A stretch of DNA of 64,000 nucleotides from Patescibacteria group bacterium (GCA_019744845.1 JAIETW010000001.1:282176-346175), one strand, 5' to 3'. Positions 33,795-58,617 are shown, counted from the first letter of the stretch. Made by a program: numbers and translations. Notes: generated by a model from the letters alone, not told the origin.

Positions 33795-33854
33795 ACGTCT
33801 ATGTGGTTATGTACTAAGTATATACCTGATGCTATAGTGCTCCTGGAATTATTA

Positions 33855-33946
33855 GTATCCAGAGCGCGACGAGGGATCTGGCCCTTTGACTCGCCGGCAA
33901 CCTGTAAAAATACAAGGTGCCTCCAGCCCCGTATGGGGGACGATAC
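33855..33946 (+). promoter_or_regulatory. SAM-I (S-box) riboswitch in the metK leader
   Basis: GUAUCCAGAGCGCGACGAGGGAUCUGGCCCUUUGACUCGCCGGCAACC...GGUGCCUCCAGC...GAUAC matches the S-box consensus (AUCaAGAG.GG.GGAGGGA.UGGCCC.AUGA..CCGGCAACC...GGUGC.A.UCCAGC). A P1 helix GUAUC/GAUAC closes it. Confidence 0.65.
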
Positions 33947-33956
33947 CTACTATCTA

Positions 33957-53261: not shown

Positions 53262-54186
53262 ACTTGGTAGTTATCCCTTGACAACAGGTAACCCCCGGAA
53301 CTAGAATTGGAGTATATGAAGTACACCATTATCCAGTTCCAGAAAGATTATCCGACCGACGATGCCTGCCTTGAACGCCTCTTTAGGCAGAAGTTCCCCA
53401 ATACCGAGGGATACTACAGAATCAAGAATCGCATGTGCTACTCCCACAAGACCACCCGCCACCAGATACATCCCCTCGCAGGCACTATCTTTGAGAAGAC
53501 CTCAACTCCTCTCACGCTCTGGTTCCATGCAATATATCTCTTCTCTACTTCTAAGAATGGAGTATCTGCCAAAGAGCTTCAGCGTCAGCTTGGCGTCACA
53601 TACAAGACTGCATGGCGCATGGCGCATCAGATTCGGAAGCTCATGGAGCAGGGCTCAGATCCGCTTTCAGGGGTGGTGGAAGTAGATGAGACGTACTTCG
53701 GGAAGCGAGGAGACAATGAGAGAAAATTCAAGAACAAGGCGGCGCTTATCGGAGCCGTGGAGCGCAAGGGACGTGTACGGGCAGTCAAAGCTCCTAATCG
53801 TAGAGCAGAAATAGTCTTACCCTTCGTAAAGGAGAACGTGGAGCGCGGCGCTCACGTGATGACGGATGAATACAGCGCCTATGGCAGGCTTACAGGTTCA
53901 GCGTATGGATACGCCCACACGTCCGTAAAGCACGGCAAGAAACACTACACCTGGGGCGAGAGCCACACGAATACCATTGAGGGCTTCTGGGGCCAGTTTA
54001 AGCGCTCTGTTAGGGGGACGTACTCTTTCGTTTCTTCGCAGCACCTGCAGGCTTACGTGAACGAGTTCGCGTTCCGCTATAATTACCGGTCTTCTTCGGT
54101 TTTCGACCAACTACTGGCGAGGATATAGCTTTGGAGAGGAGGCGTTCGAAGTCGTCCTTTTGGGTCATGGAAGGAATTCTACCATT
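53262..54186. mobile_element. Tentative IS1595-family element boundaries (imperfect 12-bp IRs TGGTAGTTATCC / GGAATTCTACCA)
   Basis: Left IR tggtagttatcc at ~53265. Right gga​attctacca at ~54173, reverse complement tggtagaattcc (9/12 match). Boundaries not certain. Confidence 0.3.
53307..54128 (+). CDS. IS1595-family transposase (ISXO2-like DDE domain)
   Basis: N-terminal zinc region, VEVDETYFGKRG, HVMTDEYSAYGRL, NTIEGFWGQFKR. Characteristic ISXO2-like domain. Confidence 0.85.
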   Translation: MEYMKYTIIQFQKDYPTDDACLERLFRQKFPNTEGYYRIKNRMCYSHKTTRHQIHPLAGTIFEKTSTPLTLWFHAIYLFSTSKNGVSAKELQRQLGVTYKTAWRMAHQIRKLMEQGSDPLSGVVEVDETYFGKRGDNERKFKNKAALIGAVERKGRVRAVKAPNRRAEIVLPFVKENVERGAHVMTDEYSAYGRLTGSAYGYAHTSVKHGKKHYTWGESHTNTIEGFWGQFKRSVRGTYSFVSSQHLQAYVNEFAFRYNYRSSSVFDQLLARI

Positions 54187-54214: not shown

Positions 54215-54826
54215 TTAGGTTCTCGTTTGTTCTAATAAGGTGAAGGGAATGTGCATTATTTGCTCTTTCTTGTATACAGCATAATGCGTCTTGTCATAAA
54301 AATTGTCTTTTATGCCATCGTACGCGATACTCCTGTCGTATTCCAAACCATTTCGAGTTACTTTTGCAATACGCGGTGTTCTGATGTTTAAAAAACAGGG
54401 ATAAACGGAGCGCTCGGCTGCTTTTCCTGGAGCTGTTTTTATTCTTCCCCAATACTCAGCATAACTCCATAGATCGGAAAAGTAGACCAGGTCGTCAGAT
54501 AAAGAGTCAGGCATTAACCCTTCGGCATTTGGAATATCTACCGGTGTTCCGTGGAAAAATACTTTTGGCTCTCCTGTGGATTCGTAAACGACTGTGCTTG
54601 CGTTCTTGGAATCGGATTCCCAATCTCCAAACCAATTCTTAAATGTGCTTGTTCTTATTATTCTGCAGAGGAGTTCATTGTCCCGAAGTTCGGAGATTTC
54701 CCCGTTAGGAGCCAAAATTTCTCCCTTTTCGTTGCGTTCCAATATGATGCTTTCTGCCTCTTTCTCGCACTGCTCAAATAGAGTAAACATGTGCTCTGGT
54801 GAACGAAAAGTCTCTGGAGATTGCAT
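54215..54826 (-). CDS. Hypothetical protein with ART-fold-like HGT motif (possible ADP-ribosyltransferase/Tpt1-like)
   Basis: KVFFHGTPVD...VYFSDLWSY...EYD is reminiscent of H-Y-E ART-fold proteins (diphtheria-toxin/Tpt1-like HGT). Weak. Confidence 0.3.
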   Translation of the reverse strand: MQSPETFRSPEHMFTLFEQCEKEAESIILERNEKGEILAPNGEISELRDNELLCRIIRTSTFKNWFGDWESDSKNASTVVYESTGEPKVFFHGTPVDIPNAEGLMPDSLSDDLVYFSDLWSYAEYWGRIKTAPGKAAERSVYPCFLNIRTPRIAKVTRNGLEYDRSIAYDGIKDNFYDKTHYAVYKKEQIMHIPFTLLEQTRT

Positions 54827-55318: not shown

Positions 55319-55592
55319 AAACGAGCACAGAGGGCACTTTAGCTGGTTTTTGCTCCTGGAGCAAGCTTCTTCCACATCCCCCGAAGGGCCACAAGGGCCC
55401 ATACTGTCTCAATGACAATGAAAGGCCAGGAGTTGATAAGGACCGCATACCAGGTGAGGAGTGCTGCCCCTACAAAGTTAAGCGTGTTGTACCAGAGACC
55501 CTCATCCTCCATGACGTTCAGCGCGCCTGCAATAAACGCAGCCAGCAGAAGAGCTGCTCCGAGAACGCCTATAAGGGTAATGGGATCTATAG

Positions 55593-55666
55593 TGCTGGTG
55601 GGAGGACTTGCACCTCCGACCTTGGGTTTATGAGTCCCATGCTCTAACTACCTGAGCTACACCAGC
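55593..55666 (-). tRNA. tRNA with CAT anticodon (elongator Met or Ile2-lysidine type)
   Basis: G1:C72, anticodon loop CTCATAA, variable AGGTC, atypical T-loop TGCAAGT. Not initiator-like. Confidence 0.65.
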
Positions 55667-55700: not shown

Positions 55701-56375
55701 TCAACGCCCTAGTTTTACTTCCGCAGTGGCGATGTCTTCTGGGCGTCCGATTGGAATCCACAGCGACTGCTCCACCACCGTAATCGGAAGCTCCTTCGCC
55801 ATCAAATTAAGGGGGTGGGTCATGAAGTATTCCCCACTCTCATGCCGTGCAGCCTCAAAAGAGAAGAGGCGCTCATCAAGCACCATGCCGCCGGTAGAGA
55901 CCAGATTCCCTTTCGGGTGCTCTGGCTTCTCTATGACCTCCTCAAGTGTACCGTTCTCCCGTACCGACACCACGCCCATGCTTTCAGGACGATCATGCGG
56001 TGCAACGAGAATGGCGAGCTCGTGTGATACCGCCTTAGTGAGTGCTTCTTTTCCTTGAATATCATCTGCATTCAAAAGAAGAAACTTCCCCGTGATAAGA
56101 GGACGTGCGACTGAAAGTGCGTGTGCCGTGCCTGCAGGCATCCACTGATGCGCATAGCGGACCGGAAGACCTTGGTAGGAGTCTCCAATATGCGCCCGCA
56201 CCATGTCGGCCTTGTACCCCACTATAAGAATGATCTCCGTTATGGAGTCAGGGAGTGCATCAAGCACATGCTCAAGAATAGTCTTTCCCGAGACCTCAAT
56301 AAGAGGCTTCGGACGCTCAAGGGTAAGGGGGCGCATGCGCTTCCCTTCTCCCGCTGCCATGATGACTGCCTGCAT
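55701..56375 (-). CDS. Sugar-phosphate nucleotidyltransferase (NTP-transferase family)
   Basis: VIMAAGEGKRMRPLT (G-x-G-x-R) and LLNADDI motifs. 224 aa. Confidence 0.75.
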   Translation of the reverse strand: MQAVIMAAGEGKRMRPLTLERPKPLIEVSGKTILEHVLDALPDSITEIILIVGYKADMVRAHIGDSYQGLPVRYAHQWMPAGTAHALSVARPLITGKFLLLNADDIQGKEALTKAVSHELAILVAPHDRPESMGVVSVRENGTLEEVIEKPEHPKGNLVSTGGMVLDERLFSFEAARHESGEYFMTHPLNLMAKELPITVVEQSLWIPIGRPEDIATAEVKLGR

Positions 56376-56441
56376 ATAGAGAGACTATACGACATAGCCG
56401 CCTCGTTTTATAGCGGTATCCCGTATGCTAAAGTACACACC

Positions 56442-57167
56442 ATGAACGAGGAATTTGACGCACATGAGGCGTTAGTGCGCGAACTCTCTGATCCCCACCT
56501 TCGTGAGCAGTACGCCCGCCCCTATAACGGACGAAAGATCGGCCTTGTGCCAAAGATTCTTGCTGCCTTCCTTGTAGGTTCTGGCACTCTGCTTTACGGC
56601 CGTCGCCCTTCCTACGGGAAATTCAAGGCAATTGAGGTCATTGCGCGTGTTCCCTACCAATCATGGGAAGTGGCAGCGTACACGCTCGTCTCTGCCTTTC
56701 ATGGAAACGAGAAGATGGCGATTGAGCTTTGTAAGACGAGTGCCTTTAGCCGCTTCGCACAGGACAATGAAACGATGCACGTCGTCGTGATCTCACACCT
56801 CGCACGACGCAAGAAAGATCATGGACTCTTCCGGTTCACCCTCATACCTCTCATTTTCGCCCTCATCTACTTCTGGGCGATTTACTTCCTCTACATGATT
56901 TCTCATAAGGCAGCACTAGAGCTGAACTACCTCTTTGAGTCTCATGCCTATGAGCAGTACCAGGAGTTTATTGATACGAACGAAGAAATGCTCAAACAGA
57001 CTCCTGTGATGTCCGACTTCCTCGCCTTCTACGGTCGGAACGTAAAGAGTGAGTATGAGTTCTTTGAGAGTGTACGTAACGACGAACTCATCCACCGCAA
57101 CCGTTCTATCCGCGAACTTGAGGTGCGCGGCACTCGCATTAAGCCTTCGTTTGAGGAGACGGTGTAG
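56442..57167 (+). CDS. Alternative-oxidase (AOX/PTOX)-like membrane di-iron carboxylate protein
   Basis: IEVIARVPYQSW (AOX LETVA-VP), LFESHAYEQY and RNDELIHRNRS (AOX RADEAHHR) give an E...ExxH...E...ExxH pattern with an amphipathic membrane helix region. Start at MNEEF after the upstream gene. Confidence 0.5.
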   Translation: MNEEFDAHEALVRELSDPHLREQYARPYNGRKIGLVPKILAAFLVGSGTLLYGRRPSYGKFKAIEVIARVPYQSWEVAAYTLVSAFHGNEKMAIELCKTSAFSRFAQDNETMHVVVISHLARRKKDHGLFRFTLIPLIFALIYFWAIYFLYMISHKAALELNYLFESHAYEQYQEFIDTNEEMLKQTPVMSDFLAFYGRNVKSEYEFFESVRNDELIHRNRSIRELEVRGTRIKPSFEETV

Positions 57168-57747: not shown

Positions 57748-57806
57748 AGTTGAATGGTATCACTCGTGAACGAAGAAAAGCGCCACTGGCGCTTTTCTAT
57801 ATCTTG

Positions 57807-58123
57807 TTGCGGGGGCCGGAATCGAACCGGCGTCTGGAGGTTCTTTTACACCTTCTGTTTCCAGAAGGAATGGACTATCCCATAATCCTGACGGATTCTC
57901 CCATTATAGTCTCTGAACCTTCCCCGAATGTACTCGAGGCTTGGCTGCTGATTGCCGAATCTTTTTGTTTTTCAAACCGTCGCATCCATCCTTTCGGATC
58001 ACGCTGTGGTACAAAAAGCTCTAACGGTGTTCCAGCAATTTAGAGAGTTTTTCCACTACCCGTTGCCGGATAGGGTCACGTTTACCACATGAGCCTCCCG
58101 AGGTACCTCTCCTCTACCCCGCG
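57807..58123 (-). tRNA. Initiator tRNA-fMet (anticodon CAT) split by a 246-nt group-I-like intron after anticodon nt 36
   Basis: 5' exon CGCGGGGTAGAGGAGAGGTACCTCGGGAGG-CTCAT, nearly identical to E. coli tRNA-fMet including the C1xA72 mismatch and A11:U24. 3' exon AA-CCTCC-AGAC-GCCGGTTCGATTCCGGC-CCCCGCA-A. Confidence 0.7.
57843..58088 (-). ncRNA. Group-I-like intron in tRNA-fMet
   Basis: The 5' exon ends in U. The intron ends in G (GGTGTAAAAG|AA). GGTTCAGAGACTATAATGGG...GGATAGTCCATTCC resembles the Tetrahymena J6/7-P7 segment AGUUCACAGACUAAAUG...GAUAUAGUCGGACC. Confidence 0.55.
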
Positions 58124-58245: not shown

Positions 58246-58617
58246 ATGCCCCTTTCAGACCCACATAAGCGAAAAAAGTACCACGCAAAATATATGAGAG
58301 AGGTGTGGTATCCGAAGAATAAAGAGCGGCACCTCACTTACGTAAAGCGAAACAAGCAACGCGTGACAGAGTTTATTGAAAGTTACAAGAGAGCCCGGTC
58401 ATGTATTGACTGTGGTTTTTCCGGTAAAAACTTTCCTTATGTTTTAGATTTTGACCATATACATGGAAGAGACGCTAAGAAGTTCACTATCGGCAGCTGG
58501 TCTCACTCAGTACTTAGCGTTGAGGCTATTAGGAAGGAAATAGAAAAGTGTGAACTAGTATGTGCAAACTGTCATCGTATACGAACATTCAAAACGAAAC
58601 AGCGTGCTCAAAAATAG
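58246..58617 (+). CDS. HNH endonuclease (free-standing, adjacent to intron-containing tRNA-fMet)
   Basis: CIDCGF...LDFDHIHG...CANCHR gives C-x2-C...HH...C-x2-C-H, an HNH/zinc-finger nuclease motif. Confidence 0.6.
   Translation: MPLSDPHKRKKYHAKYMREVWYPKNKERHLTYVKRNKQRVTEFIESYKRARSCIDCGFSGKNFPYVLDFDHIHGRDAKKFTIGSWSHSVLSVEAIRKEIEKCELVCANCHRIRTFKTKQRAQK

Follow-up and report, generated by a model that had tools for sequence, protein, structure and literature searches.

The initiator-type tRNA gene in the 64,000-nt stretch of DNA analysed here (the window) is interrupted directly after the third anticodon base by a 246-nt group I intron. The intron is very probably spliced out of the transcript and has long resided in one clade, where it is passed on mainly by vertical descent. 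The core reading of the first-pass annotation, an initiator-type tRNA(CAU) interrupted in its anticodon loop by a group I intron of this length, is supported. The most interesting lead lies beside the split gene, in the form of a small HNH endonuclease gene. The host is an uncultured ultra-small bacterium of the Patescibacteria (CPR): matches to the window's LigA come from metagenome contigs only (Logan, SRR15085126), and the nearest named relatives of the window's genes are found in MAGs labelled Paceibacterota, Kaiserbacteria, 'Patescibacteria group' and Saccharibacteria (third-party assemblies).

Layout of the split tRNA gene

Run in intron mode, ARAGORN returns tRNA-Met(cat) i(36,246) on the minus strand, and gene positions p were converted to window positions as 58124-p (Table 1); without intron mode, the program finds no tRNA at 57807-58123. 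The 5' exon holds the acceptor 5' strand, the D arm with A11:U24, the 5' strand of the anticodon stem (GGAGG) and CUCAU, and it is identical or near-identical in 27 aligned relatives. The 3' exon, which reads AACCTCC...CCCCGCAA, contributes AA, CCUCC, a 4-nt variable loop, the T arm, the acceptor 3' strand and A73, and CCA is not encoded in it (57842-57807). The insertion is placed at 36/37: the 5' exon ends in CUCAU and the 3' exon starts with AACCUCC, without a CAU of its own. Between the two, the intron, GUGGUAAACGUGACC...GGUGUAAAAG, starts with GUGG and ends with AAAAG (58088-57843), and the ORF list has no sense-strand reading frame within it. Splicing in silico yields a product of 71-72 nt that forms a clean cloverleaf with the anticodon loop CUCAUAA. 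That the anticodon-stem halves GGAGG and CCTCC are parted by 246 nt, as had been noticed at first pass, is exact to the base on the minus strand, and the U said to precede the insert and the G said to end it are U36 and G57843. The hairpin just 3' of the tRNA is likely a terminator.

Table 1. Features of the split initiator-type tRNA gene and its surroundings, in window coordinates
Feature	Position	Strand	Length and remarks
Whole split tRNA-fMet(CAU) gene	57807..58123	-	317 nt; ARAGORN -i, sequence read directly
5' exon, tRNA positions 1-36	58089..58123	-	35 nt, CGCGGGGTAGAGGAGAGGTACCTCGGGAGGCTCAT; ends in U36
P1 hairpin	58073..58095	-	exon GG-UCAU + intron GU with internal guide AC-GUGA-CC
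Group I intron	57843..58088	-	246 nt; RF00028 match, homologues in at least 30 GTDB species
P2 hairpin, GNRA loop (GCAA)	58057..58072	-	6/6 pairs changed on both sides, 100% paired
P3 5' strand CUCUC	58043..58047	-	pairs with 57898-57902; 3/5 compensatory, 100% paired
P4-P5 domain	57946..58037	-	P4 = 58037-58032 / 57951-57946, then P5, P5a, bulge, P5b, P5c
P6/P6a hairpin	57917..57945	-	P6 invariant; P6a 6/6 pairs with double changes
J6/7-P7 5' strand, G-A(bulge)-GACUAU	57906..57913	-	7 pairs, 100% complementary, invariant in 27 sequences
P3 3' strand GGGAG	57898..57902	-	crosses P7, giving the core pseudoknot
P8 hairpin	57884..57897	-	3/5 pairs with double changes, 100% paired
P7 3' strand AUAGUCC	57872..57878	-	same P7 helix, 27 sequences
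P9 hairpin, GAAA loop	57851..57868	-	6/7 pairs with double changes
Terminal guanosine (omega-G), 3' splice site	57843..57843	-	G281, invariant in the alignment
3' exon, tRNA positions 37-73	57807..57842	-	36 nt, AACCTCCAGACGCCGGTTCGATTCCGGCCCCCGCAA
G+C-rich palindromic hairpin, flanking T/A runs	57774..57798	.	just 3' of the tRNA, terminator-like
Free-standing HNH endonuclease gene, unannotated	58246..58617	+	123 aa; divergent, 123 nt from the tRNA 5' end

Elsewhere in the window, a SAM riboswitch (S-box) match lies at 33852-33949 (+), scoring 56 bits (gathering score 44.4). An IS1595-family transposase ORF (53307-54128) stands beside an ORF (54215-54826) with a sub-threshold ART-PolyVal (ADP-ribosyltransferase) match; the segment 53307-54826, which has a tRNA-Asp/tRNA-Met cluster just downstream of it, is possibly what is left of a mobile element. 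The ORF at 56121-57167 (+) matches the Pfam alternative oxidase family (AOX) with 28 bits (cut-off 22.7) and is kept beside the tRNA at loci L025, L116 and L006; one would not expect an oxygen-related enzyme in a genome of Patescibacteria type.

Covariance-model match and secondary structure of the intron

The Rfam scan for Intron_gpI (RF00028) that the first-pass annotation had proposed as a check gives a full-length match on the minus strand (58100-57851), covering model positions 1-253 of 253 with 71.1 bits (gathering score 50, E=4.7e-16). The second check it had named, a foldable P1-P9 with a P3/P7 pseudoknot, is likewise borne out, the model being supported by compensatory changes. An explicit structure model was laid on an alignment of 27 sequences and its pairs counted, the controls being partner strands slid by 1-3 columns and 500 shuffles. 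Standard pairs occupy 97.9% of the cells as compared with 41-47% in the slid controls, both sides of the pair change in 46 of 89 pairs, and none of the 500 shuffles attains any of the observed measures. Every helix is 93-100% paired except the weak P5c (75%). Folding of the single sequence points the same way: the centroid structure (z=-2.56) recovers P2, P4, P5, P5a-c, P6a and P9.

Individual elements differ in how they vary. In P1, the wobble between U36 (58089) and G (58079) at the splice site is U.G in all 27 sequences, and the two intron-side pairs show exchanges of G-C for C-G and of U-A for G-C. In the P4-P5 domain, which carries a conserved A-rich bulge (GAAAAAC) and a GAAA loop on P5b, P4 is invariant and double changes affect 2/3 pairs of P5, 7/8 of P5a and 5/8 of P5b. 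The introns of L030, L089 and L109 have about 95 extra nt in the P6a loop, too short for an endonuclease gene. P7 never varies, so its support comes from complementarity and conservation and not from covariation; its G-A(bulge)-G:C pattern is present and invariant in the alignment, and G57911:C57873 is presumed, from the Rfam consensus alignment, to be the guanosine-binding pair. The motifs GGTTCAGAGACTATAATGGG and GGATAGTCCATTCC, which had been quoted at first pass, are both there and form J6/7-P7 and the P7 3' strand. The invariance of P4, P6, P7, the splice-site U.G and the terminal G is what would be expected of a catalytic core under selection.

P8 starts directly after the P3 3' strand (gene positions 226 and 227 are adjacent), leaving no P7.1/P7.2 between them, so the helices specific to IA introns are absent. 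When the family profile was compared with ten labelled introns, the best match, at 29 bits over almost the whole length, was a tRNA-Lys intron of Actinomycetota that the 2026 census labels IB2, and IC3-labelled tRNA introns scored 11-17 bits; the intron may accordingly be described as 'IB-like', a term that here reflects this profile comparison with ten introns. A P10 of 3 bp, between GGU and ACC of the 3' exon, can be drawn in the window and was dropped as a conserved element; L1 differs among the relatives in the alignment.

Initiator identity of the tRNA

The tRNA has the anticodon CAU, an unpaired 1:72 (C1xA72) and the D-stem pair A11:U24, which is AU in 27/27 sequences. Both of these latter features had been claimed at first pass and are present, whereas the description of the exons as 'almost identical' to E. 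coli tRNA-fMet was overstated: the spliced tRNA shares 77% identity with E. coli tRNA-fMet and 55-58% with E. coli elongator Met and Ile2. The three consecutive G-C pairs at 29-31:39-41 that are a hallmark of bacterial initiators are absent as a set, two of the three being present: in the stem GGAGG/CCUCC, only 30:40 and 31:39 are G-C and 29:41 is A-U. Because intron-less relatives have A29-U41 too, this pair is a trait of the lineage. The related tRNAs (family loci L006-L117; L121-L240), with or without the intron, mostly have A1xA72 and not the canonical C1xA72, and three family relatives have U1-A72 or U1xU72; the mismatch at 1:72 is kept in most relatives despite A1 for C1. Initiator identity at 1:72 seems relaxed in this Patescibacteria clade. 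From the features listed, we infer that the spliced product is used as an initiator tRNA.

The 64-kb window contains a second CAU tRNA, at 55592-55666 (-) with G1-C72, and no further one. This tRNA(CAT) has an A.A mismatch at the bottom of the anticodon stem and could be either elongator Met or lysidine-modified Ile2.

Distribution and inheritance of the intron

Across 185,579 GTDB species genomes, a scan with the pattern GCGGGGTRGAGN{5,12}CTCNNNNGGCTCATB, which describes an initiator-type tRNA with a base other than A37 after the anticodon, found at least 119 loci. Among the matches listed, 31 (plus 4 cut by contig ends) have the architecture of the window, that is GGCTCAT / G..GTGACC... / AACCTCC with inserts of 243-341 nt. 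Homologous introns, 75-90% identical in nucleotide sequence to that of the window and at the same site, are found in at least 30 Patescibacteria GTDB species, the closest among the matches listed being that of a Paceibacterota MAG (JAGOSU010000006.1, 90.5%). The gene order ligA-gatC-gatA-p205-tRNA-fMet, as traced by tblastn of the window proteins, holds in nearly all family loci, at which GatA is 52-79% and LigA 47-73% identical to the window's.

Intron-less alleles are common among close relatives. A metagenome scan with GGTAYCTCGGGAGGCTCATAACCTCCAGRC found at least 120 contigs with an uninterrupted gene (AGCGGGGTAGAGGAGAGGTACCTCGGGAGGCTCATAACCTCCAGACGCCGG... at L127 or L232), and about 90 of those listed share the p205/GatA synteny of the window, their GatA reaching up to 80% identity with the window's. 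On a neighbour-joining tree of GatA from 64 loci, intron-bearing and intron-less loci are intermingled, and Fitch parsimony requires at least 16 state changes. At the same time, intron distances track GatA distances (Spearman rho=0.79; Mantel 0/2000), and rampant horizontal transfer of the intron was ruled out on this ground. The simplest reading would be that the intron is old and mainly vertically inherited, and that close relatives have repeatedly lost it precisely or had it replaced by an intron-less allele; the number of such events is rough because it comes from a single-gene tree and from intron-bearing and intron-less samples drawn from different databases (GTDB and metagenomes, respectively).

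Introns in initiator tRNAs were also found in Nitrospirales, Omnitrophota, Planctomycetes, Andersenbacteria, further Saccharibacteria-labelled MAGs and Clostridia MAGs, so they are far from confined to cyanobacteria. In the Clostridia gut MAGs (L016 2792-3100; also L055, L075 and L091), an E. coli-like initiator tRNA has an insert of about 240 nt after CAT. The L016 insert matches Intron_gpI with 85 bits in a laxer run and gives no match in the gathering run with default filters; in this and the similar Clostridia introns, no terminal G could be placed beside the expected AACCC 3' exon. Longer inserts of 300-980 nt occur in the initiator tRNAs of Nitrospirales, Omnitrophota, Planctomycetes and Elusimicrobia MAGs (L005, L014, L027, L042, L057, L059, L080, L108, L113, L119), most of them with Intron_gpI matches; they apparently lie at 33/34, with the intron starting at CAT, and those of 645-980 nt could encode endonucleases.

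An HNH endonuclease gene adjoining the tRNA

The divergent HNH gene upstream of the split tRNA is a clean presence/absence insertion of about 430 bp between p205 and the tRNA: the gap measures 470-510 nt with the gene and 40-190 nt without it. When the window's HNH subfamily is counted at loci whose upstream sequence spans 520 nt or more, 13 of 29 intron-bearing loci among the matches listed have the gene and none of 90 intron-less loci does (Fisher p=9e-10); when the set is restricted to loci with GatA at least 65% identical and p205 directly upstream, the counts are 10/19 and 0/22 (p=8e-5). In both cases, these are counts without phylogenetic independence, taken from two databases. Tips with the HNH gene are scattered on the GatA tree (at least 7 changes), and on the intron tree too, yet they always carry the intron. 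The protein belongs to a family with 363 unannotated relatives, apparently restricted to Patescibacteria.

More distant members widen the picture. At L058, the HNH gene is on the opposite side of the split tRNA, and at L241-243, about 90 nt separate a tRNA-fMet split at 33/34 from a downstream homologue with 55% identity. The intron at these latter loci is a different one, with an IC3-like core (GGTGTAGAGACTAGACG...GGTATAGTCCAGACCAC), adjoined by the same endonuclease family (L241 2578-2909 and 3001-3405; also L242 and L243). At L244, L245 and L246, distant homologues (55-57% identity) adjoin intron-less tRNA-fMet genes, whose anticodon stems are CAAGG, GCAGG and GAAGG, and a strict rule that the HNH gene never accompanies an intron-less gene was dropped after these three. 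As far as the loci compared here go, the constant feature is an HNH family adjoining the initiator-tRNA gene, the exclusive link with the intron being found only in the window's subfamily. Separately, at L245 (209-1550), the HNH homologue precedes a pair of tRNA-Met(CAT) genes, of which the first resembles an initiator and has no intron; behind the pair comes a 223-aa ORF with a weak LAGLIDADG_3 match, which may be a second free-standing endonuclease at this tRNA cluster.

Could the intron and the free-standing gene be a functional pair, engaged in collaborative homing or immunity? We regard this as possible, though less likely than not. The HNH protein would cut tRNA-fMet DNA that has no intron, in the anticodon loop or close to it, and the intron would remove the site and so protect the gene that it sits in. 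When a cut intron-less allele is repaired, the intron would be copied into it, either alone or along with the HNH gene, and a genome carrying the HNH gene could not lose its intron. This is not without precedent, the concept being established in phages (PMC3984707), and it agrees with the closeness of the two elements, with the clean indel, with both sets of counts among the matches listed, with the scattered tips that nonetheless always have the intron, and with the homologues on the other side of a split tRNA-fMet at L058 and, beside a different intron, L241-243. On the other hand, the homologues at L244-L246 sit beside intron-less tRNA-fMet genes, albeit with other anticodon stems, the largely vertical phylogeny of the intron leaves little homing needed to account for its distribution, and the counts, drawn from two databases, lack phylogenetic independence; a single ancestral insertion into a chromosome that had the intron, followed by tight linkage (about 155 bp), could suffice. 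The HNH data may be fitted by collaborative homing or intron-as-immunity and, equally well, by simple tight linkage after one insertion: the association suggests, and does not prove, an intron-endonuclease partnership. A bolder form of the idea, which we offer as speculation that has the odds against it, makes the 123-aa HNH family initiator-tRNA-specialised homing endonucleases and, in the window's lineage, where uninterrupted anticodon-loop DNA would be cut, the ORF-less 36/37 intron their immunity determinant, the two together being a chromosomal addiction or collaborative-homing unit; if true, no earlier intron-endonuclease unit of such a kind would be on record for the tRNA gene of a cell, or for a genome so strongly reduced.

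Proposed splicing and the possibility of decay

A mechanism can be proposed from the structure model. The transcript would fold into P1-P2, a P4-P6 domain with a P5abc-like extension and a P3-P7-P8-P9 domain with the P3/P7 pseudoknot. The guide GUGA would pair with exon UCAU, which would put U36 into the U.G pair that marks the 5' splice site. Attack at this site would come from an external guanosine docked in P7, and the 3'-OH of U36 would then attack after the terminal G, joining CUCAU to AA. The ligation product would have a 7-nt anticodon loop in an initiator tRNA of 71 nt, to which CCA would be added afterwards. We infer from the conserved fold that the intron is self-splicing. As P10 is not conserved, the exons would have to be aligned by the anticodon stem, whose formation competes with the two outer pairs of P1. 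In the Anabaena pre-tRNA, the anticodon stem reportedly aligns the exons (work of Zaug et al. in 1993), and by analogy it probably does so here.

Alternatively, the interrupted gene might be a decaying pseudogene, in which a dead intron sits in an unused tRNA copy and a functional initiator gene lies elsewhere. The view is limited to 64 kb of the genome, and A29-U41 is atypical of initiators, both of which would suit decay. Yet the exons are identical or nearly so across at least 30 species, at a protein identity of only 47-79%, the helices stay paired through compensatory changes around an invariant catalytic core, and intron-less relatives have the same tRNA, A29-U41 included, as an ordinary gene at the same locus. 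Exon conservation, compensatory pairing and the invariant core argue for purifying selection on both tRNA and ribozyme, making decay highly improbable and leaving a spliced intron in a working gene as the preferred reading.

Implications

Since ARAGORN without intron mode misses the gene, genomes of the clade appear to be without an initiator tRNA, which distorts inferences on completeness and on the translation machinery in Patescibacteria. The catalogue of bacterial tRNA introns gains an initiator tRNA split at 36/37, a combination unlisted in the main text and Table 1 of the complete-genome census as regards Patescibacteria (PMC13011429). One fixed locus, with and without intron and with and without endonuclease, offers a well-sampled series for intron gain, loss and persistence in minimal genomes. 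Should the link between HNH gene and intron be functional, collaborative homing or intron-as-immunity would become testable on an essential gene of a cellular organism.

Comparison with known tRNA introns

In their census of 4,934 complete genomes, Nakagawa et al., 2026 (PMC13011429) report 333 tRNA group I introns from 18 phyla, with 33/34 in tRNA-fMet and 36/37 in tRNA-Arg as usual sites, and group I introns in about 40% of Patescibacteria genomes; for the Patescibacteria Asn and Asp introns, self-splicing was demonstrated in vitro. For 95 complete Patescibacteria genomes, Table 1 of the census gives Asn and Asp introns at 35/36, Thr introns at 36/37 and two Microgenomatia Met(CAU) introns at 33/34; an initiator tRNA split at 36/37 is absent from that table and from the main text, and on these parts of the census we found no description of the combination. 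The first-pass annotation had called the present intron notable on the ground that tRNA-fMet introns are known mainly from cyanobacteria: the intron itself stands, and the ground is outdated, given the 333 introns in 18 phyla in the census (PMC13011429), the at least 30 Patescibacteria species with the window's intron and the Clostridia MAGs that also have fMet introns at 36/37.

The nearest comparison is with the other Patescibacteria introns. These share with the window intron not only the phylum but also a short and mostly ORF-less sequence, a place in the anticodon loop after a U and a terminal G; default tRNA finders miss them, and none is of IC type (PMC13011429). There are differences, however: (i), the census introns are classed as IA, while the window intron is without P7.1/P7.2 and closest to an IB2-labelled intron; (ii), the census scored endonuclease genes inside introns only and not adjoining ones such as the HNH gene (PMC13011429).

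The tRNA-fMet intron of Synechocystis PCC 6803 (I-Ssp6803I; PMC1995217, PMC13011429) is alike in occupying the initiator anticodon loop and in being sporadic among relatives. The cyanobacterial intron, however, is at 33/34 with an IC3 core (PMC13011429), and that of the window at 36/37 with a non-IC3 core and a P5abc-like extension; some cyanobacterial fMet introns contain a PD-(D/E)XK endonuclease gene, whereas the window intron is ORF-less and has its HNH gene outside. Recent transfer of a cyanobacterial tRNA-fMet intron, for which the same type of host gene and the anticodon-loop location might speak, is the least credible of the readings, contradicted by the insertion at 36/37 and not 33/34, by a J6/7-P7 core of GGUUCAGAGACUAUAAUGG as against GGUGUAGAGACU(A/G/U) in the tRNA introns labelled IC3 in Table S5, by the weak match of a Bacteroidota fMet 33/34 IC3 intron to the family profile (17 bits, as against 29 for the IB2-labelled Lys intron), by the lack of an internal PD-(D/E)XK ORF and by vertical inheritance within Patescibacteria. 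Identity with the cyanobacterial intron is refuted by insertion site and core sequence: site, core and the missing internal PD-(D/E)XK gene all differ, so this is not the cyanobacterial fMet intron.

The Azoarcus tRNA-Ile(CAU) intron is also inserted at 36/37, and its 5' exon, which ends in CAU, pairs with a GUG-type guide. Introns in tRNA-Ile2 and tRNA-Arg(CCU) at 36/37 resemble that of the window in lying right after the third anticodon base (Table S5, PMC13011429). The Azoarcus, Ile2 and Arg introns are IC3 (IA1 for the Bacteroidota Ile2 example) and reside in elongator-type tRNAs, and their profile similarity to the window family is only 13 bits.

Collaborative homing, in which an ORF-less intron is served by a free-standing endonuclease, is known from phages (PMC3984707). 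The arrangement in the window is similar, with an ORF-less intron and a free-standing endonuclease gene adjoining the interrupted gene, but the latter is a protein gene of a phage in one case and a tRNA gene of a cellular chromosome in the other (PMC3984707); moreover, the window intron is mostly vertical, and distant HNH homologues coexist with intron-less tRNA-fMet. The intron of the window adds another lineage to a kind already known, the group I introns of bacterial tRNA genes.
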